DNA of 64,000 bases, taken from contig CAYWVD010000001.1 in the NCBI GenBank assembly GCA_964461915.1, positions 235,168-299,167 on the forward strand, given 5' to 3'. This stretch comes from an uncultured Candidatus Saccharibacteria bacterium. GTDB taxonomy: Bacteria; Patescibacteriota; Dojkabacteria; B142; OLB20. Positions 9,673 to 18,000 of this stretch are shown here, piece by piece. The translations under genes and the position numbers were made by a program. The notes beneath the pieces are model-generated. The model was not told the origin of the DNA and made no database searches. It was given only the letters and a program-made list of their open reading frames with translations. The first letter of the stretch is position 1. Each line of letters opens with the position of its first letter.

Positions 9673-10452
9673 TTAATGAGGTAAAAAAACTTTTTTTATA
9701 TGTTCGGGAAAGCTTTGAACTTCCTCAGGGAAAATGCTTGTTATTTCAAGTAATACATCTTGCGGTTCTTTATAATGACCTCCCTTTTTTAGAATATTAA
9801 TTAAGCCTTCTTGGCCACTAGACTCTAATATAGTTATAAGATTTTCGGCTTTTAAAGACAATTCTTCCCACTGCGATTCAGTTAATGCGTTAAAATTCAT
9901 CCAATTTTTAAGTTCGTTGAAAACAGTTTTAATCTCCATGAGTAATCCCATATTAGAATTATCGAAGACTAGAGAATGTTTAGCATTAATTGTTTCAATA
10001 TCAAAATAATCAAAACCCCATAAATCGGTGTATTTCTTTTTTAAAACTGAATCCCTTTCATCAAGAAATTCCATATCAACTTTATTGATTGATATCCTTT
10101 CACGCCTTACTTCAAATGGAGTAGTAAGAAATATTGAAAAGACTTTTGGGTTTTTACCTATTCTAAAAACAGAGATATCAGCATCAATTAAAATATTAGA
10201 GGAATTAAGTAATTTGTAGTCTATGAATTGATCAACAGCTTTCCCAATAATATCTTCTATATAGTCATCAAATTGGGGCCTGGAAATACCAACATTTGAA
10301 AATCCGAGTTTTGAACCAAGGTAACGATAAATATTTCCTATATAGATAAAATCTCTTTCGAATAAACAAGCAAGTAATAGCGCTAATGTTGTACATCCGC
10401 TACCAGGCCACCCGCTAACACTAAAGTTGATTTTTTTTGTTTCGTCATCCAT
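9673..10452 (-). CDS. P-loop NTPase / kinase-like protein (cytidylate-kinase-like fold?)
   Basis: N-terminal Walker A-like GWPGSGCTTLA. No other specific motif seen. Confidence 0.35.
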   Translation of the reverse strand: MDDETKKINFSVSGWPGSGCTTLALLLACLFERDFIYIGNIYRYLGSKLGFSNVGISRPQFDDYIEDIIGKAVDQFIDYKLLNSSNILIDADISVFRIGKNPKVFSIFLTTPFEVRRERISINKVDMEFLDERDSVLKKKYTDLWGFDYFDIETINAKHSLVFDNSNMGLLMEIKTVFNELKNWMNFNALTESQWEELSLKAENLITILESSGQEGLINILKKGGHYKEPQDVLLEITSIFPEEVQSFPEHIKKVFLPH

Positions 10453-11200
10453 TTAATATCATTCTATAAGATTTAATTTCCTTTTCAATAACAGATTGTA
10501 TCCAATTATTTTGAATAGTTAATATTTTTAACCATTGCTCTTCAGTCAATTTTATTATATCAAGTTCTGAAAAATCTTTTTTTCTTAAATATTTTTGGAC
10601 TTTAAGAATAGTATCTTCAACTAAATCAGAATCATCTTTTACGTCAAAATGATTTTCACAAACATAGCCTAATGAATTACTTTGAATTATATTTTTTCTA
10701 GGTTTCCCTAATTTGAATGGCTCGTTACAGATTGAGCAATTTAATAAATCAGGTTCGAATCCAAAAATCTCCAAGCATCTTATTTGAAAATAGGCTAGAG
10801 TAGGTAATACACGATCAAGATTTTCTTCAAGATAATCTAGGATATCAATTACGAGTACAAAAAGATCTTCTTGAGACGCATCTTCTATAGTAAAGAAATT
10901 TAGTATTTCAATTATGTAAAAGATTGTAGCAATGCCTAAGCCACTTGCCTTTAAATTTGAATATGATGAGACAATATTTGTTTGGAGTAAAAGGTCGAAC
11001 TCGGATTTGCTTTTATAGTATTGGATTTTTACATGATTCCCTGGATCAAGTGATGGGGCATTTTTACTTAGAGTTTTACTTGCTCCTTTAACTATTAATT
11101 TTAGTTTTCCATTCCCCCGGGAAAAACAAATCAATAATTTAGTAGCTTCTTTAAGAGGTCTTAATTGTAAAATTAAGACCTCTTCATTGATGTTTCGCAT
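10445..11200 (-). CDS. recO: DNA repair protein RecO
   Basis: N-terminal OB-fold pattern (VLILQLRPLKEATKLLICFSRGNGKLKLIVKGASK) and a C-terminal CxxC...C zinc motif (CSICNEPF...YVCENHF). Sits just downstream of the nrd operon. Confidence 0.55.
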   Translation of the reverse strand: MRNINEEVLILQLRPLKEATKLLICFSRGNGKLKLIVKGASKTLSKNAPSLDPGNHVKIQYYKSKSEFDLLLQTNIVSSYSNLKASGLGIATIFYIIEILNFFTIEDASQEDLFVLVIDILDYLEENLDRVLPTLAYFQIRCLEIFGFEPDLLNCSICNEPFKLGKPRKNIIQSNSLGYVCENHFDVKDDSDLVEDTILKVQKYLRKKDFSELDIIKLTEEQWLKILTIQNNWIQSVIEKEIKSYRMILNG

Positions 11201-11207
11201 TGATTAT

Positions 11208-14200
11208 TTATCCGCACTTAGAAAAACCGCATGATCTACATAATATACATCCTTCGGCATACTCAAGATCGCTTCCACATTCCGGACATTCAAAAAGATC
11301 ACCAAATTCATTAGATTTTGAGTAATGACTATGTTCTTCATTTTCAAAAATTGGAGCCGTATCTTTTACAGCACTTTCGGTTTTGGGTAGAATTGCAACA
11401 ATTTTCTCTTCGGGAACATCGTTAATCAAAGGTTTATCTTCAATAACAGGGATTTCTAAATTGATAATGTTTTTGGGATCAGGTATCAATTTTATTTGTT
11501 GAGCTTCGGATTCTAAATGTTTTTTCATTATTTTAGCTACAGCATCCGGAACTGAATAAACAATCATACCTTTATTCAAAGTAGGTGTTGAAGTTCTAAT
11601 ACCTTGAAGTTGCTTAATAATCATTTTGGGCATTATTCCACTTCGTAGGGACATTGATATCAAGCGGCCCATGGCTTCAGTATATCCAGCAGTAAAACTT
11701 CCGCTTTTACCAAGATTCAGGAAAACTTCGACAATACCTTTAGAATCTGAGTTTATAGTCACATATAAGTCACCTTGTTCGGTTTTTACCTCATAAGTCC
11801 TTCCATTAGTGAATTCTTCCCGTTTTCGTGGTTCTAATTGATTTCGAGGAATTTCAGGAGTGGTTATTGGAATTGGTTTAATATCCTCAGTTTTCTTTTT
11901 AGTACCTACCTGAAGTGCTGGATCTTTACTCCCATCTCTAAAAACTGTAATACCTTTACATTTTAATTCATAAGCCAAGGTATAGATCCTTGCGATATCT
12001 TGCCAGGTGGCGTTATTAGGAAGGTTAATTGTTTTAGAAACTGCGCTATCTATATGCTTTTGAAAAGCCGCTTGAATGAAAACATGTTGTTCAGGATCGA
12101 TTTCATGAGTTGTTTTAAAAACATCTACAATGTATTTGGGAACATTGTATTTATCGGAAATTTCGTTAAGGTGCTTGCCAGAGGCAATTTCATGAATAAA
12201 TTCTTCACTATAAAATCCTAAAGATTCAGCTACTTCTTTAATTAGTGGGTCAACTACCTCTTGGTCAGCCCCACCCATAGAATTCTTCCTTCGGTAACCC
12301 AGTGCAAAAATCGGTTCGATGCCAGGATTACAATTAGCTATAATTGAAATTGTTCCTGTAGGAGCAATGGTTGTTACTCGTGTATTTCGCATCGCCTTTA
12401 TACCTTGAGATGCCCAGGTTGAATTTTGGAATTCCGGAAAACTACCTTTTTCAAATCCTAGATCAACTGAAGCTTGATGAGCTGATTTTTGAATAAACTT
12501 CATTACTTCTTCTGCGATAGTTATGGATTCATCGTTACCATAACTTACTCCAAGTTTGATTAATAGATCAGCAAAGCCCATTATGCCTACACCAATATTT
12601 CTTGTCCTTTTTGTCATTTCTTCAATTTCTTTGATTGGATAATGATTGATATCAATTACATCATCCAAGAATCTTACAGCGTATTCTATTACGACTTTTA
12701 ACCTATCCCAGTTAATGAATTGTAGTTTGTCGGCAATAGACATTTTTTGAATATTATCTTCCCCAATAAGAGGGAATCCCATAACAAACTTACTTAAATT
12801 TATGTGACCCATATTGCAAGTTTCAAATGGGATTAATGGTTGTTCTCCGCAAGGATTAGTCGCATTCATTTTACCAAGAGATGGTGTAGTATTCCCTTTT
12901 TCAGCATTATCCAAAAAGAACATGCCGGGATCACCGCTTTGCCAAGCCTTTTTTGCAATTTCTTCGAATAGATCGCGTGCATTTATCGTTTGATAAACCT
13001 TACCGTCATGGGGATCAATCAAATCCCACTCCTGTGAATTTTTTACAGCTTTCATGAATTTATCACTTGCACCAACGGAAATGTTGTAATGGGTGATCGA
13101 AACTAAATCGTCTTTGGATGCAATAAAATCCAAAATATTGGGATGGTCTGCATTTAAAATTGCCATTGATCCCAAGCCTCTTCCGCCTCGACCTCTTATA
13201 GTATCTTGAGCTCGATTATACATACGAATGTATTCTATTGGACCAGCAGCAAATTCTCCTGTTGAAGAAACTTTTGAATAAGATGATCTAATCTTAGAAA
13301 AATTAAAACCTGTTCCTACGCCTCTTCTTAAGCATTGAATATTCCAATTAAGGCTTTGGAATATTGAATCAATTGAATCATTTATTGGTAAAACTAGGCA
13401 TTTTGATATGACCGTATCTTTACCCATACCAGCCCAAATTAAAGTGCCTCCACACAAAAACTCACCATTGTTCATAATCTCTTCGAATTTTGAAGTGAAT
13501 TCTTCGCGTAAATCTGGAATTTCAGCGCTTGCAATGTAAGAAGCTATTCTTCGCCATAATTCTTCAGGAGTTTCTAAAATTTCTCCTGAATCAGATTTAC
13601 TTAATGCCCTTTTACCTAATACTTCTATGGCATTTGGAGTAAGTTGATTTTTAATTATTGATTTTGAAATTGTTTTAACTTCATCTTTTATTTTGGATTC
13701 ACCAATTTTACCTAATACTTGATCTTGTTTTGAGCCATCTCGATAAATTGTAATGCCTTTACATTTGGTTTCCCAAGCTAGAATATAGGCTTTTTTTACA
13801 TCATCTATGGTTGAATCAGCAGGCAGGTTAATTGTTTTACTAACAGCGGCATCAATATGTTTTTGTGCAGCAGCTTGCATTAAAACATGCCAATCGTAAG
13901 AGATTTCGTGAGTAGTAACAAAAATCTCATAGGCTTCCTTAGGTAAACCTTTAATTCCTTTTAATGAGCCATTGTTTTTAGCTATTTTTTCCATTAATTC
14001 TTTGGAATAAAAACCCTGTTCTTTGGCATAAGATTCAAATTCTTTCTCAACAAATAGAAGAGATTTTTTATCCTCCTTTGAATCGTCTTGGTAGAACATC
14101 GAAACTTGATACACCAAGGAGAAAACAGGTTCGATGCCACTACTTACATTTGCAAGCAAGCTTATTGTCCCGGTTGGAGCAATCGAGGTAAATGTTGCAT

Positions 14201-15527
14201 TTCTGACCTTTATCCCTTTTTTATCCCATACACTACCTTTGAATCCTGGGAATACGCCTCGTTCTTTGGCAAGTTCTACAGATTCGTTTTGGCATTCTGT
14301 AGCAATAAATTTACCTATCTTATCCATTAATTTAATCGCCTTTTCACTGTTATAGGGGATCCCTAATTTGTAAAGTAATGAACTAAAACCCATAAAACCA
14401 AGTCCAGATTTTCTTGTCAATGCAACTTCTTTTTGTATCTGATTTAATGTAAATCTACTATTGTCAATCATATTGTCCAGTAAATGCATCCCTGTATGAA
14501 TGGTATTTCTCAAAGATTCCCAATCAATTTCATATTTACCATTTACAGAAATTACATGCGAAGGTAGAACAACCGATCCAAGATTGCATGATTCATAAGC
14601 CCTTAAAGGTTCTTCACCACATGGATTCGTTGCTTCAATAATCCCTAGCTCCGGTGTTGGATTTGCTTTTTGAGCTGTGTCTAAAAAGAAAATACCAGGA
14701 TCAGCTGATCGATATGCTACATCACAAATTTCATCAAAAACGGCTCTGGCTTTCAGTTTCTTAATAACATTGCCGTTTCGAGGATTTATTAATTCATATT
14801 CTTCATCATTTTTTACCTTATTCATGAAATCATCTGTTATACCAACGCTAATATTGAAGTTGCGAATAGTATTGTCTTTTTCTTTTAAGTGAATAAATTC
14901 CAAAATATCTGGATGATTTACATTTAAAATAGCCATATTACCTCCACCTCTTTTTTTACCCTGAAGTATTTGATCAAAAGCCTGAGAAAAAGTTTTGATG
15001 AAATGTAAAGGCCCAGCAGCTACATTCGGCGTCCCTCCAACAGAATCTCCTTTTGGTCGAATATGCGAAAAGTTAAATCCTGTACCGCCATTGTTTTTTT
15101 GAACAATAGCAGCCTCTTTCATAACTTGAAAAATGTGTTCCAAACTATCTTCAATTGGCAAAACAAAACAAGATGCTAACTGACCGGTGCCATCAACTTT
15201 ATTTCCAGCTTCATAGAGAACCCTTGATCCTGGTAAGTATTTATTTGATGCCATAACTGTATAAAAATCTTTAGCTGTTTTGAGTACAGCTTTGTTTTTC
15301 CTTTGTATGGCACCTTTTACATATTTAGCATCTTCTAAAGCTAGAGTACTTGCTACTCGCCAAAACATATCTTTGGGTGTTTCAATAGGGTTTCCTTTTT
15401 CATCTCTTAAAAGATGTCTTTTAGACATAATTTTAATGGAATTTTCATTAAAGTTGGGCTCTATAAGATCGTGGGGCATTTCTTTAACAGATTCTAAATC
15501 AATTAAGTTTTTGGATGTATCGTTCAT
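11208..15527 (-). CDS. nrdJ: Fused tandem class II (adenosylcobalamin-type, NrdJ-like) ribonucleotide reductase: two complete catalytic modules in one 1439-aa ORF plus a C-terminal Cys-rich zinc-ribbon tail
   Basis: Module 1 has LASCFVLPI ... ATNPCGEEPLRAYESCNLGSV ... TSIAPTGTISLLANVSSGIEPVFSLVY ... CKGITIYRDGSK. Module 2 has ISKCLVLPI ... ATNPCGEQPLIPFETCNMGHI ... TTIAPTGTISIIANCNPGIEPIFALGY ... CKGITVFRDGSK. The tail is CPECGSDLEYAEGCILCRSCGFSKCG. The two halves are homologous to each other along their whole length. Confidence 0.75.
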   Translation of the reverse strand: MNDTSKNLIDLESVKEMPHDLIEPNFNENSIKIMSKRHLLRDEKGNPIETPKDMFWRVASTLALEDAKYVKGAIQRKNKAVLKTAKDFYTVMASNKYLPGSRVLYEAGNKVDGTGQLASCFVLPIEDSLEHIFQVMKEAAIVQKNNGGTGFNFSHIRPKGDSVGGTPNVAAGPLHFIKTFSQAFDQILQGKKRGGGNMAILNVNHPDILEFIHLKEKDNTIRNFNISVGITDDFMNKVKNDEEYELINPRNGNVIKKLKARAVFDEICDVAYRSADPGIFFLDTAQKANPTPELGIIEATNPCGEEPLRAYESCNLGSVVLPSHVISVNGKYEIDWESLRNTIHTGMHLLDNMIDNSRFTLNQIQKEVALTRKSGLGFMGFSSLLYKLGIPYNSEKAIKLMDKIGKFIATECQNESVELAKERGVFPGFKGSVWDKKGIKVRNATFTSIAPTGTISLLANVSSGIEPVFSLVYQVSMFYQDDSKEDKKSLLFVEKEFESYAKEQGFYSKELMEKIAKNNGSLKGIKGLPKEAYEIFVTTHEISYDWHVLMQAAAQKHIDAAVSKTINLPADSTIDDVKKAYILAWETKCKGITIYRDGSKQDQVLGKIGESKIKDEVKTISKSIIKNQLTPNAIEVLGKRALSKSDSGEILETPEELWRRIASYIASAEIPDLREEFTSKFEEIMNNGEFLCGGTLIWAGMGKDTVISKCLVLPINDSIDSIFQSLNWNIQCLRRGVGTGFNFSKIRSSYSKVSSTGEFAAGPIEYIRMYNRAQDTIRGRGGRGLGSMAILNADHPNILDFIASKDDLVSITHYNISVGASDKFMKAVKNSQEWDLIDPHDGKVYQTINARDLFEEIAKKAWQSGDPGMFFLDNAEKGNTTPSLGKMNATNPCGEQPLIPFETCNMGHINLSKFVMGFPLIGEDNIQKMSIADKLQFINWDRLKVVIEYAVRFLDDVIDINHYPIKEIEEMTKRTRNIGVGIMGFADLLIKLGVSYGNDESITIAEEVMKFIQKSAHQASVDLGFEKGSFPEFQNSTWASQGIKAMRNTRVTTIAPTGTISIIANCNPGIEPIFALGYRRKNSMGGADQEVVDPLIKEVAESLGFYSEEFIHEIASGKHLNEISDKYNVPKYIVDVFKTTHEIDPEQHVFIQAAFQKHIDSAVSKTINLPNNATWQDIARIYTLAYELKCKGITVFRDGSKDPALQVGTKKKTEDIKPIPITTPEIPRNQLEPRKREEFTNGRTYEVKTEQGDLYVTINSDSKGIVEVFLNLGKSGSFTAGYTEAMGRLISMSLRSGIMPKMIIKQLQGIRTSTPTLNKGMIVYSVPDAVAKIMKKHLESEAQQIKLIPDPKNIINLEIPVIEDKPLINDVPEEKIVAILPKTESAVKDTAPIFENEEHSHYSKSNEFGDLFECPECGSDLEYAEGCILCRSCGFSKCG

Positions 15528-15547
15528 ATTTTAAATTAGTAAATTAA

Positions 15548-17335
15548 TTATTTATTATTTGAACCTAAATTTAATACTTGTTGATCTCTACTTTTATCAC
15601 GATATATAGTCATACCCTTTAATTTTGATTCTGAAGCCATAAAGAAAGCCTTTTTAATATCGGCTTTTGTAGCATTTTCTGGGAAGTTTATCGTTTTTGA
15701 AACTGCATTATCAGTAAATTTTTGGAAAGCAGCCTGCGCTTTGATATGCCATTCGGGTGTAATATCAAAAGCAGTTACAAATATCTTTTTGATTCTATCA
15801 GGGATTTTTTTTATATCTTTTAGAGTTCCTTTTGCAATGATTTCTTTCATAAGAGCTTTGTCATAAAGCCATTCATTTTTTAACTTTTCTTCTAAATATT
15901 TATTTACAAACATAATCTCAGTATCTCCCAAGGTTTCCATGTTTTTTCGTATGTATCCCAATGCAAAAAATGGTTCGATTCCACCATTACAATCGGCTAG
16001 TAATGAGGTAGTTCCGTTTGGAGCAATTGTTGTGACAGTAGCATTCCTCATGTGCTTATAGCCCGATTTATCCCATAATGACCCTTTGAAATTACCAAAA
16101 TCTCCTCTTTCTCTTCCCAACTTTTGTGATTCATCATGAGCTATTTTTTGAATAAAAGACATAACTTTTTCAGCCAATTCAATAGCTGGATCTGAGTTAT
16201 AGGGAATTTCCAATAAATAAAGCAGGTCTGCCCATCCCATGACTCCAAGTCCAATTTTTCTATTCCCAAATTTAACGATTTGTTCGATCTCTGGAAGTAA
16301 ATGGTGTGTAACAGTTACAGTATTATCCAAGAATCTAACACCAATCCTAACCACCTTTTCTAATCTCTTCCAATTAATTTTATCTGCGGGACTGATCCTT
16401 TCTAAAAGCTTATCTTCAAAAATAAACTTATTTAAAACTACAGACCCCAAATTGCAAGCTTCATAGGGTAGAAGAGGTTGTTCCCCACATTGATTAGTTG
16501 CCGTCATTTTCCCAACATTAAGCGTAGGATTGTGTCTGTTAACTTCATCAATAAAAATAAAACCTGGTTCTCCACTTTTATAAATACTATCAACAATTAG
16601 ATCAAGAAGTTCTGTTGCTTTAACTTTTTTATAGACTTTGCCATCGTGTACAAGTGGAAAAAAGTCATCATTCTTTAGAGCCTTAATAAAATCATCTGTA
16701 ATTGCGATTGAAATATTAAAATTTGTAAGTTGAGAATAATCTTTTTTTGCAGTTATAAATTTTTCAATATTCGGGTGATCAATACGCAAAATGCCCATAT
16801 GTCCTGCATGCCTAATTGCTCCTCGATTTAATATAACTTCTGAAGAAAAATCATAGAGTCTCATGAATGAAATTGGCCCGCTTGCTTCGCGGCCTGTAGA
16901 TTTTACTATAGACCCATCTGGGCGCACTTCAGAAAAATCATAACCGATACCCGCTCCTCGTCTATGTAAAATCACAGTTTTAGCCAAAGTGCCATAAATT
17001 GATTCCAAACTATCATGAATTGGCATAACATAACATGCAGCTACAATGTCCTTATTCCCTCTATCAAGAAGAGGCATACCGGACAAGAACTCTAAATTAG
17101 CTTGAATCTCATAAAAGTCATTTTCAATTTGGATTAATTTTTCTTTATCAGGTATTTTATAATTCTTTTTTTTGTCAGAAAGGTCAGATTCTGCGGTAAC
17201 CATAAATTTAGATATTCTTTCAAACATCTGTGCAGGCGTCTCATCTTCTTGACCTTTCTTGTTTATCTTAAAATACCTTTTCTTGGCTATCATTAGTGCG
17301 TTATCAGTAAATTGGGGCGAGATTTTATTTTTCAT
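15548..17335 (-). CDS. nrdJ: Class II ribonucleotide reductase (NrdJ-like), third catalytic module as a separate 595-aa ORF, no C-terminal zinc-ribbon tail
   Basis: VAACYVMPI ... ATNQCGEQPLLPYEACNLGSV ... TTIAPNGTTSLLADCNGGIEPFFALGY ... LKGMTIYRDKSR. Collinear with both modules of the upstream fused ORF. Confidence 0.8.
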   Translation of the reverse strand: MKNKISPQFTDNALMIAKKRYFKINKKGQEDETPAQMFERISKFMVTAESDLSDKKKNYKIPDKEKLIQIENDFYEIQANLEFLSGMPLLDRGNKDIVAACYVMPIHDSLESIYGTLAKTVILHRRGAGIGYDFSEVRPDGSIVKSTGREASGPISFMRLYDFSSEVILNRGAIRHAGHMGILRIDHPNIEKFITAKKDYSQLTNFNISIAITDDFIKALKNDDFFPLVHDGKVYKKVKATELLDLIVDSIYKSGEPGFIFIDEVNRHNPTLNVGKMTATNQCGEQPLLPYEACNLGSVVLNKFIFEDKLLERISPADKINWKRLEKVVRIGVRFLDNTVTVTHHLLPEIEQIVKFGNRKIGLGVMGWADLLYLLEIPYNSDPAIELAEKVMSFIQKIAHDESQKLGRERGDFGNFKGSLWDKSGYKHMRNATVTTIAPNGTTSLLADCNGGIEPFFALGYIRKNMETLGDTEIMFVNKYLEEKLKNEWLYDKALMKEIIAKGTLKDIKKIPDRIKKIFVTAFDITPEWHIKAQAAFQKFTDNAVSKTINFPENATKADIKKAFFMASESKLKGMTIYRDKSRDQQVLNLGSNNK

Positions 17336-17344
17336 ATAAAATTT

Positions 17345-17794
17345 TTAAATATTTAATTCGTTAATAGCTTTTTGAAAGTCATTTAAGTTTTTAAAATCTT
17401 TATAAACTGACGCATAAAGCAAATATCCGACTTTATCAATTTCTTTTAATTTTTCTAATACTAGTTCTCCAATTTCAATGCTTTTAATATAGGTTGTTTT
17501 CGAGTTTAGTAGTGAATTTTCAATATCGTTTATTAAATTATCAATAACGGACTCTTGAATTCTTCTTTTTTTGATTGCAGTTAAAATACCTCTTTTCAAT
17601 TTTTCTCTATCAAAGTCTTCAATTTTCCCACTCCTTTTAATAACATTTAAGCAAATTGATTGTATCCTTTCATAAGTTGTGAACCTTTTTAAACAGTCTA
17701 AACATTCTCTACGACGACGAACAGAGGACGTCGAGATATTATCTCTTTTATCAACGACTCTAGTTTTTCTAGATTTACAATAAGGACAAATCAT
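17345..17794 (-). CDS. nrdR: Transcriptional repressor NrdR (zinc ribbon + ATP-cone). Start taken at MICPYC (ATG at 17792-17794), not the longer ORF start at 17848
   Basis: MICPYCKSRKTRVVDKRDNISTSSVRRRRECLDCLKRFTTYERIQ is near-identical in pattern to the NrdR N-terminus (M.CP.C ... SVRRRR.C..C..RFTT.E). Confidence 0.8.
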   Translation of the reverse strand: MICPYCKSRKTRVVDKRDNISTSSVRRRRECLDCLKRFTTYERIQSICLNVIKRSGKIEDFDREKLKRGILTAIKKRRIQESVIDNLINDIENSLLNSKTTYIKSIEIGELVLEKLKEIDKVGYLLYASVYKDFKNLNDFQKAINELNI

Positions 17795-17842
17795 ATACAA
17801 TCTATAGTGTGGAGAGATTAAAGTAACAACAACTAGTTGTGT
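17795..17842 (-). promoter_or_regulatory. NrdR-box-like operators upstream of nrdR. Box 1 at 17795-17810, directly abutting the nrdR ATG. A palindrome at 17827-17842 sits about three helical turns away. Region is shared with the divergent Mur-ligase gene
   Basis: In gene orientation box 1 reads ACACTATAGATTGTAT, matching 14 of 16 positions of the NrdR box consensus as recalled from the literature (acaCwAtATaTwGtgt). The second element contains the perfect 12-bp palindrome ACAACTAGTTGT at 17829-17840. Confidence 0.45.
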
Positions 17843-18000
17843 AGTCAAATTAAAATTCTTTATTGTCTGCTTTGAATATTAGTCGAATTGTTGAAATTTT
17901 GTTACCATTTTTTGTTCCAAATTTACTTTAAAGTGCTGAAGTTTAAAATTTTGATTTGATTTTCATAATTGATATACTCTTATAAATATTAAATAAAACA

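Follow-up and report, generated by a model that had tools for sequence, protein, structure and literature searches.

Why would a bacterium keep three different versions of the catalytic core of one enzyme, chain two of them into a single polypeptide and give a redox tail to only one? The question is raised by a ribonucleotide reductase (RNR) locus in a 64,000-nucleotide stretch of DNA (hereafter the window) from contig CAYWVD010000001.1 (positions 235,168 to 299,167; assembly GCA_964461915.1) of an uncultured Candidatus Saccharibacteria bacterium that GTDB places in the Dojkabacteria. As a rule a single RNR core type handles all four substrates, and its specificity is switched at a homodimer interface. 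A preliminary description of the window had reported three full NrdJ-type class II cores in one operon, two of them fused in a 1439-amino-acid (aa) open reading frame (ORF), and our Pfam and TIGR02504 searches bear this out, down to the exact ORF coordinates. We call the two fused cores modules A and B and the free-standing one module C. The genes lie on the minus strand of the window, the fused ORF at 11208-15527, and are given here in the order nrdR, C, A-B:

17345..17794, minus strand: nrdR, a Zn-ribbon and ATP-cone repressor of RNR genes (Pfam Zn_ribbon_NrdR and ATP-cone)
15548..17335, minus strand: module C, a free-standing NrdJ core with no C-terminal tail (595-aa ORF)
15528..15547, minus strand: spacer of 20 nucleotides (nt) between module C and the fused gene
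13725..15527, minus strand: module A, aa 1-601 of the 1439-aa protein (Pfam, pairwise alignment and AlphaFold2 predicted local distance difference test [pLDDT])
13653..13724, minus strand: A-B linker, disordered and Cys-free, aa ~602-625, 24 aa (pLDDT <50)
11919..13652, minus strand: module B core, aa ~626-1203 (Pfam and alignment to module A)
11514..11795, minus strand: TSCPD domain, aa 1245-1338 (Pfam PF12637, E = 1e-19)
11214..11288, minus strand: Cys6 zinc-finger redox tail, aa 1414-1438 (C-x2-C-x9-C-x2-C-x2-C-x4-C)

Pfam identifies the all-alpha N-terminal RNR domain (Ribonuc_red_lgN, PF00317) and the ten-stranded barrel domain (Ribonuc_red_lgC, PF02867) once each in the 595-aa protein and twice each in the 1439-aa protein. 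The model specific for class II enzymes, TIGR02504 (NrdJ_Z), scores 1206 bits on the fused ORF and 567.5 bits on module C (cut-off, 399.95). Under NF006417 the fused ORF reaches 1616 bits and module C 708.7 bits, the latter staying below the cut-off of 961 because C has no tail, and the RTPR model TIGR02505 gives only 90 bits (cut-off, 340). Module C aligns to residues 16-639 of Thermotoga maritima NrdJ (1xje), that is, to the entire crystallised core (E = 1e-105). The extra length of the fused ORF comes from another complete core, alignable with the first over its full length, and the Pfam scan of both RNR ORFs returned no intein or endonuclease family, in agreement with the earlier view that no intein is involved. 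The junction between the fused cores had been estimated at about 13350-13700; the linker occupies nt 13653-13724 and reaches just past the upper end of that range. Fold, catalytic residues, scores against curated models and tail all mark these cores as class II NrdJ-type. Database records name the proteins 'adenosylcobalamin-dependent ribonucleoside-diphosphate reductase' or 'NrdZ'.

Each core carries a full catalytic set: C120, N301, C303, E305 and C314 in module A; C710, N891, C893, E895 and C904 in module B; and C101, N281, C283, E285 and C294 in module C. The redox-cysteine motifs read SCFVLPI (A, aa 119-125), KCLVLPI (B, aa 709-715) and ACYVMPI (C, aa 100-106), the finger loop is TNPCGE in A (aa 300-305) and B (aa 890-895) and TNQCGE in C (aa 280-285), and the downstream-cysteine motifs are ESCN (A, aa 312-315), ETCN (B, aa 902-905) and EACN (C, aa 292-295). 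These are the motifs that the preliminary description had quoted, and its statement that all three modules keep them holds; moreover, the equivalents of T. maritima C134, N320, C322, E324 and C333 are invariant in both halves of 88/88 fused proteins. The same five residues are conserved in the C family.

The three cores also evolve at equal rates, with mean pairwise identities on the same 30 contigs of 0.66 (A), 0.66 (B) and 0.69 (C), and none is decaying or under relaxed constraint. As a reference we used 78 canonical NrdJ sequences, including an ordinary Patescibacteria NrdJ (L005) and archaeal forms, in which 204 core columns are at least 90% conserved; A retains 146 of these, B 135 and C 138, or ~70% per core. 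The references came from a contig scan that used the fused-protein alignment and the patterns ATNPCGE and PLxxYESCN. Because of the patterns chosen, the scan was dominated by ordinary single-core NrdJ, and it yielded a single Patescibacteria multi-core locus (L052). Residue conservation and rates argue that all three are working catalytic cores.

Age and distribution of the three-core arrangement

Over ~600 aa the modules share 39.5% (A/B), 40.5% (A/C) and 41.6% (B/C) protein identity (E values of 1e-147 to 1e-157), and at the DNA level just short patches align among them, at 64-83% identity. The identical 1439-aa protein is recorded from three assemblies, on contigs of 808,157, 24,603 and 5,319 bp. 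In a search of 5.8 billion proteins, the top 120 matches included at least 97 fused clusters (90% identity level) of 1370-1500 aa, with 45-76% identity and 98-100% query coverage, and every named fused match was from Dojkabacteria/WS6, Kerfeldbacteria, Parcubacteria or the 'Patescibacteria group'. At the level of 50%-identity representatives the fusion collapses to ~2-3 clusters, and no triple fusion occurs among these representative matches. The fused proteins make up a single family restricted to the candidate phyla radiation (CPR).

The 50%-level search also returned many proteins of 1000-1650 aa that match in 2-5 stretches jointly covering one core (for example, P0262, P0270, P0309, P0329 and P0332). 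These are probably intein-interrupted single-core NrdJ, and for that reason protein length alone cannot identify double cores.

Module C has more than 110 orthologue clusters of its own, from Patescibacteria (560-600 aa, 51-90% identity), and about 40 of the C matches have the same longest-contig size as a fused match by our reading of two match tables. A separate core gene stands immediately upstream of the fused gene in 7/7 loci, namely, the window, L081, L083, L084, L085, L086 and L087; L082, a second contig with the same protein as L081, was not counted separately. In six of the seven, nrdR precedes the upstream core gene, the exception being L081/L082.

In a neighbour-joining tree (177 sequences, 577 columns and 100 bootstraps), the A modules group together with 97% bootstrap support and the B modules with 100%, A and B join at 79%, and C branches next. 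A recent duplication, which the preliminary description had entertained, is refuted by these separate groups, by module identities of ~40% and by a layout kept across Dojkabacteria, Kerfeldbacteria and Parcubacteria. Each module is nearer to canonical NrdJ (45-47% identity) than to its sister modules (41-43%), which means that each has diverged in its own direction. The branching is compatible with a canonical NrdJ having been duplicated in tandem twice in succession within Patescibacteria, after which the younger pair would have fused and C would have lost its tail.

Individual loci vary. In L084 (3814-5970; P0083 lineage), the upstream gene encodes a nearly canonical 718-aa NrdJ with its own TSCPD domain, an intact FLPNSPTLMNAG motif and TNVCGE on the finger loop. 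This tail-bearing, motif-retaining gene lies at the base of the tree, where an ordinary Patescibacteria NrdJ and short archaeal NrdJ are neighbours, and it may represent the ancestral state of module C. An unfused two-core variant is present in the Patescibacteria isolate JTS-AC14 (L052, 5427-11177), in the order nrdR, tail-bearing NrdJ (793 aa), an ORF of 169 aa and a tail-less, A-like core of 683 aa; the 793-aa protein is very divergent (~35% identical to everything else), and the 683-aa core is 50% identical to the A modules. In the Dojkabacteria assembly GCA_016931155.1 (P0063/L085, on a 559,650-bp contig), module A has a mean identity of only 47% to other A modules, compared with 64% for its B and 69% for the partner C, which points to module-specific acceleration, or replacement, of this module A.

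Nucleotide-binding sites and the single redox tail

The three cores differ from canonical NrdJ, and from each other, where nucleotides are expected to bind. The motif PNSPTLMNAG, 100% conserved in the 78 canonical NrdJ, is absent from A, B and C, where it is replaced by LPGSRVLYEAG, LCGGTLIWAG and LSGMPLLDRG, respectively. The aligned forms (A, PGSRVLYEAG; B, CGGT-LIWAG; C, SGMP-LLDRG) are each conserved within their own family, and module A gains a conserved Arg in this equivalent of the phosphate loop. Elsewhere the active site is conserved, as are the finger loop and the IAPTGT phosphate loop, C having N for T in IAPTG.

Specificity loop 2 couples effector identity to substrate choice, and its canonical form, K-Q-G-G-x-R-R-G-A-N, is 97-100% conserved in the reference set. 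Module A reads LQGKKRGGGNM (aa 188-198; family form L-Q-G-K-K-R-G-G-G-N) and keeps only the canonical Q, R and N. Module C reads NRGAIRHAGHM (aa 170-180; family form N-R-G-A-x-R-H-A-G-H) and keeps the first R only. The module B loop, RGRGGRGLGSM, is Gly-rich and one residue shorter than the canonical one (family form G-R-G-G-R-G-(L/Q)-G-S). Each version is conserved within its module family. The losses are concentrated in the segment equivalent to T. maritima 125-215, which spans C134, helix alpha-A, loop 1, helix alpha-B and loop 2 and thereby the specificity site and the dimer interface: of the 52 conserved columns there, A retains 30, B 22 and C 27, compared with ~75% elsewhere (Fisher P = 0.013, 4e-5 and 0.006, respectively). 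All three cores nevertheless keep the positions that hold effector phosphates (D141, K/R158 and R171), and a nucleotide-binding specificity site probably persists. The preliminary description had offered as one option a covalent heterodimer with divergent specificity or regulatory sites; the conserved loop 2 of each module and the losses in the specificity and dimer segment are consistent with such divergence, and the dimer itself is neither supported nor excluded by the structure prediction described below.

The second asymmetry is the redox tail. A TSCPD domain with a Cys6 Cys-rich domain is present in ~70% of non-monomeric NrdJ. Here the two follow only module B; A and C are tail-less, the tail cysteines are invariant in the fused family, and neither the linker nor the C terminus of module C contains cysteines. 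The TSCPD domain has been described as IscU-like (Burnim et al.). [quoted passage not shown] In Pseudomonas aeruginosa the tail is on a separate polypeptide and is required for turnover (PMC4520616).

The linker between A and B measures 26-78 aa in 93 homologues (median, 39) and is low in complexity and unconserved. As it varies in length, is of low complexity and can even host another domain, the fusion seems to act as a loose tether that fixes stoichiometry and proximity, with no rigid joint. The domain in question is a complete Ham1/ITPase domain (PF01725, ~190 aa), found inside the linker in one Dojkabacteria subclade (P0044, P0066-P0068, P0077 and P0079, of ~1600 aa; locus L086, 5001-10007). 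The insertion puts a non-canonical purine NTP (nucleoside triphosphate) pyrophosphatase within the reductase polypeptide.

Regulation and genomic neighbourhood

The first gene of the operon encodes a bona fide NrdR (TIGR00244, 155 bits; cut-off, 124.65). The ORF program lists a TTG start at 17848, and the ATG at 17794, which gives the canonical N terminus MICPYCKS, is the likely true start; the TTG extension (17795-17848) would overlap both of the NrdR-box-like palindromes that lie upstream:

17795..17810, minus strand: proximal NrdR box ACACTATAGATTGTAT, immediately before the nrdR ATG
17829..17840, minus strand: distal NrdR-box-like palindrome ACAACTAGTTGT, a perfect palindrome

NrdR boxes have the consensus acaCwAtATaTwGtgt and, in tandem, a spacing of ~31-32 bp. 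The proximal box is the best match in the 64-kb window to this consensus (14/16), and the distal palindrome lies 31.5 bp further upstream, centre to centre, in agreement with the tandem layout of NrdR operators. Given these boxes before nrdR and the short intergenic gaps (9 nt between nrdR and C and 20 nt between C and the fused gene), nrdR-C-AB is one autoregulated operon. The nrdR gene and its boxes at the head of the operon, the redox tail on B only and the loss of PNSPTLMNAG from all three cores had not figured in the preliminary description.

In the more distant relatives L081, L083 and L084, a gene for a CobA/CobO/BtuR corrinoid adenosyltransferase follows the fusion at a distance of 37 to ~1,600 bp downstream, which fits B12 dependence; the evidence that these cores bind and use adenosylcobalamin is indirect. 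The genes noted downstream of the RNR operon in these loci are at 10408-10944 in L081, 8768-9286 and 9500-10131 in L083, and 10888-11421 and 14162-15489 in L084. L083 also has a DUF4430 gene and L084 two nucleoside-diphosphate kinase (NDK) genes; neither type is present in the window, where tblastn gave no match for NDK.

Other loci have additional genes between C and the fused gene: one for a 144-aa NUDIX hydrolase in L087 (4531-4965), two unannotated ORFs of ~148 aa in L086 (4088-4983) and a 53-aa ORF in L085 (4779-4940). The Ham1 and NUDIX cases show that nucleotide-pool sanitising enzymes are recurrently associated with the operon. Recurrent neighbours in the Dojkabacteria loci are a divergent Mur-ligase gene and, downstream, recO. 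In the window, recO (10445-11200) begins 8 nt past the RNR gene and is followed by a gene for a 259-aa P-loop protein (9673-10452) with weak AAA_18 and cytidylate-kinase-like similarity, an order that is the same in L087. A perfect hairpin with a 14-bp stem (AAGAGGTCTTAATT-GTAA-AATTAAGACCTCTT, 11153-11184) begins 24 nt past the RNR stop, in the first recO codons; it could act in termination or attenuation, or could indicate that the true start of recO is further downstream.

Possible workings of the three-core reductase

With three different cores, two of them on one chain, the quaternary organisation probably differs from the usual homodimer, in which the chains are identical. We modelled A and B together (aa 20-1215) with AlphaFold2 from an 88-sequence alignment. 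The model has a mean pLDDT of 87, mostly >85 in module A, and in the PDB it most closely resembles the T. maritima NrdJ chains 1xje and 3o0o (Foldseek target TM-score, 0.83-0.84; 35% identity). A beta-hairpin is present in both modules of the model and is presumably the cofactor-associated hairpin described by Burnim et al. A first mirror-tree pass gave r = 0.90 for B-C versus 0.63 and 0.57 for the other pairs; this apparent B-C co-evolution was due to the divergent module A of P0063, and once P0063 and P0096 were removed all three correlations were ~0.75.

The reading that we favour, and to which we give roughly an even chance, is that of a hetero-oligomer whose three cores are all active, differ in their specificity sites and share one tail. 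The RNR of this CPR (Dojkabacteria-like) bacterium is built from three old paralogues of an adenosylcobalamin-dependent class II core; all of them would be active reductases, and C and the A-B chain would join in one complex. The flexible tail of B would re-reduce the active-site disulfides of A in cis and of C in trans, and tether and operon would together set the stoichiometry. Among them, the cores would split the substrate and effector specificities that the canonical homodimer obtains by loop 2 switching, a division suggested by the three different, individually conserved versions of loop 2 and of the phosphate loop. The sequences show the architecture, the age and conservation of the layout, the kept catalytic residues, the single tail, the loop 2 and phosphate-loop versions particular to each module and the NrdR boxes; that every core is catalytic, that the cores assemble and share the tail, and that their specificities have been divided, is inferred.

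Known systems supply parallels for parts of this scheme. T. maritima NrdJ (1xje and 3o0o) has the same fold, the same Cys/Asn/Cys/Glu/Cys residues and, as in module B, the order core, TSCPD and Cys-rich tail; it differs in that here there are three non-identical cores, two on one chain, with a single tail for three, and in that its PNSPTLFNAG is lost and loop 2 is non-canonical in all three. P. aeruginosa NrdJa and NrdJb (PMC4520616) likewise include a tail-less core served by a tail on another polypeptide, and the active form there is a defined hetero-oligomer. That system, (NrdJa-NrdJb)2, has one core type and a separate tail polypeptide, whereas here the tail is covalently on B and there are two more tail-less cores, so that only the logic of trans-reduction is common. 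For S. nassauensis NrdJd, PMC5704485 gives the Cys6 spacing C920/923/933/936/939/945, which matches ours except for the last gap (x5 there, x4 here), and electron transfer from the tail to another subunit was shown by experiment there. S. nassauensis NrdJd is a homo-oligomer of identical chains with no core fusion described. The same source (Loderer) describes Lactobacillus leichmannii RTPR as a single chain carrying its own substitute for a dimer partner; there a short insertion mimics the interface, and here a complete second catalytic core is present.

In yeast class I RNR, the paralogues Rnr2-Rnr4 and Rnr1/Rnr3 are duplicated subunits kept as obligate or facultative heteromers, Rnr4 being inactive. 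Rnr4 has lost its cofactor ligands, unlike our cores, every one of which keeps its catalytic residues, and the yeast proteins are small and large class I subunits, unfused and outside any operon. Loop 2 and the phosphate motif of S. nassauensis NrdJd are presumably canonical. The T. maritima, P. aeruginosa and S. nassauensis enzymes all lack fused cores and have no more than one kind of core. In the searchable RNR literature, including the RNR-wide surveys PMC9531940, PMC9669993 and PMC3019208 and the class II survey PMC5704485, neither fused or triple NrdJ cores nor Patescibacteria RNRs are mentioned, and an earlier description may still exist; the class is already known, and for the multi-core fused arrangement we found no description.

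Several observations weigh against the favoured hetero-oligomer or leave parts of it exposed. The Ser of the PNSPT motif, a ligand of the substrate phosphate in RNR structures, is lost in B and C, and normal substrate binding by these two is not assured. A strict test for specificity-determining positions (columns at least 85% conserved within each family and differing between families) gave only 15 positions, with no enrichment of the specificity region. The deep branches of the tree are weak, the node uniting A, B and C having only 32% support. The A+B model has a predicted TM-score (pTM) of 0.55, and the relative orientation of the two modules is not confident; the mirror-tree analysis gives no partner signal after removal of the outlier lineage. 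No corrinoid adenosyltransferase was found in the window by tblastn or in the loci of the closer Dojkabacteria relatives (L085-L087), and the search that found no other RNR-like ORF covered the 64-kb window. Finally, the tail domain of S. nassauensis, expressed separately, failed to rescue the truncated enzyme (PMC5704485).

Among the alternatives, the strongest, though we consider it rather unlikely, is that the operon encodes two independent enzymes that form no complex, an A-B intramolecular pseudo-homodimer (the covalent heterodimer of the preliminary description) and a C homodimer, active, for instance, on different substrates or in different conditions. Class I and II cores dimerise through an alpha-A/alpha-B four-helix bundle, and the specificity site requires the dimer (Loderer, PMC5704485; Burnim); a flexible tether of 26-78 aa would permit A and B to fold back on each other, the two are sister groups (79% bootstrap), and the near-canonical upstream NrdJ of L084, with TSCPD and PNSPTLMNAG, could act alone. 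However, a lone dimer of the window-type C, which has neither tail nor terminal cysteines, would be left without a known route of re-reduction. AlphaFold2 did not dock A on B with confidence (pTM 0.55), and C is always co-transcribed directly upstream of the fusion.

A sharper form of the hetero-oligomer, in which the cores are hard-wired specialists that take the place of loop 2 switching, one for each effector-substrate regime of a canonical RNR (pyrimidine nucleoside diphosphates [NDPs], GDP and ADP), held at 1:1:1 by fusion and operon and re-reduced by one shared zinc-finger tail, strikes us as improbable. We judge it similarly improbable that one or two of the cores are non-catalytic scaffolds or allosteric pseudo-enzymes that, like Rnr4, complete the dimer and specificity site of an active core. 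The missing PNSPT Ser of B and C, the shortened, Gly-rich loop 2 of B, the restriction of the tail to B, and the substitutions in C (NQCGE for NPCGE and N for T in IAPTG) could all be read in this way. In contrast, every family keeps the five catalytic residues with little or no variation, even at ~45% identity, the three cores evolve at equal rates, and each keeps ~70% of the canonical conserved columns (146, 135 and 138 of 204).

A new function, with some cores no longer reducing ordinary NDPs and acting instead on NTPs, other phosphorylation states or modified nucleotides or in a different radical reaction, seems highly improbable to us. It could account for the disappearance from A, B and C of a motif found in all 78 canonical NrdJ, for the conserved Arg gained in A and for the recurrent presence of nucleotide house-cleaning enzymes in the operon (Ham1 within the linker, NUDIX between genes). 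On the other hand, nrdR and NrdR boxes head the operon, the remaining active site, the finger loop and the IAPTGT loop are conserved, and, with no other RNR in the window, the organism probably relies on these cores for its deoxyribonucleoside triphosphates (dNTPs). An origin by misassembly, by repeat collapse or by tandem duplication in the very recent past can safely be dismissed, as nothing was found in its favour and it is ruled out by modules ~40% identical and barely alignable as DNA, by recovery from three assemblies and by at least 97 diverged clusters.

According to Loderer 2017 (PMC5704485), every known RNR other than a few viral enzymes has allosteric specificity regulation. Against this background, a whole bacterial lineage has kept three different cores over a long evolutionary time, two of them chained and one redox tail shared, an architecture that the generic annotation 'adenosylcobalamin-dependent ribonucleoside-diphosphate reductase' hides. 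If the cores are specialised or form an asymmetric hetero-oligomer, they would be a natural experiment in splitting specificity regulation and tail re-reduction between subunits, in a system small enough for direct expression and testing, and one that would bear on the balance of dNTP pools in genome-reduced CPR bacteria. Should the cores prove to be hard-wired specialists, dNTP balance would be set largely by stoichiometry and less by allosteric cross-talk within a homodimer, which would mean a new principle of organisation in an enzyme whose allosteric control has been regarded as universal.

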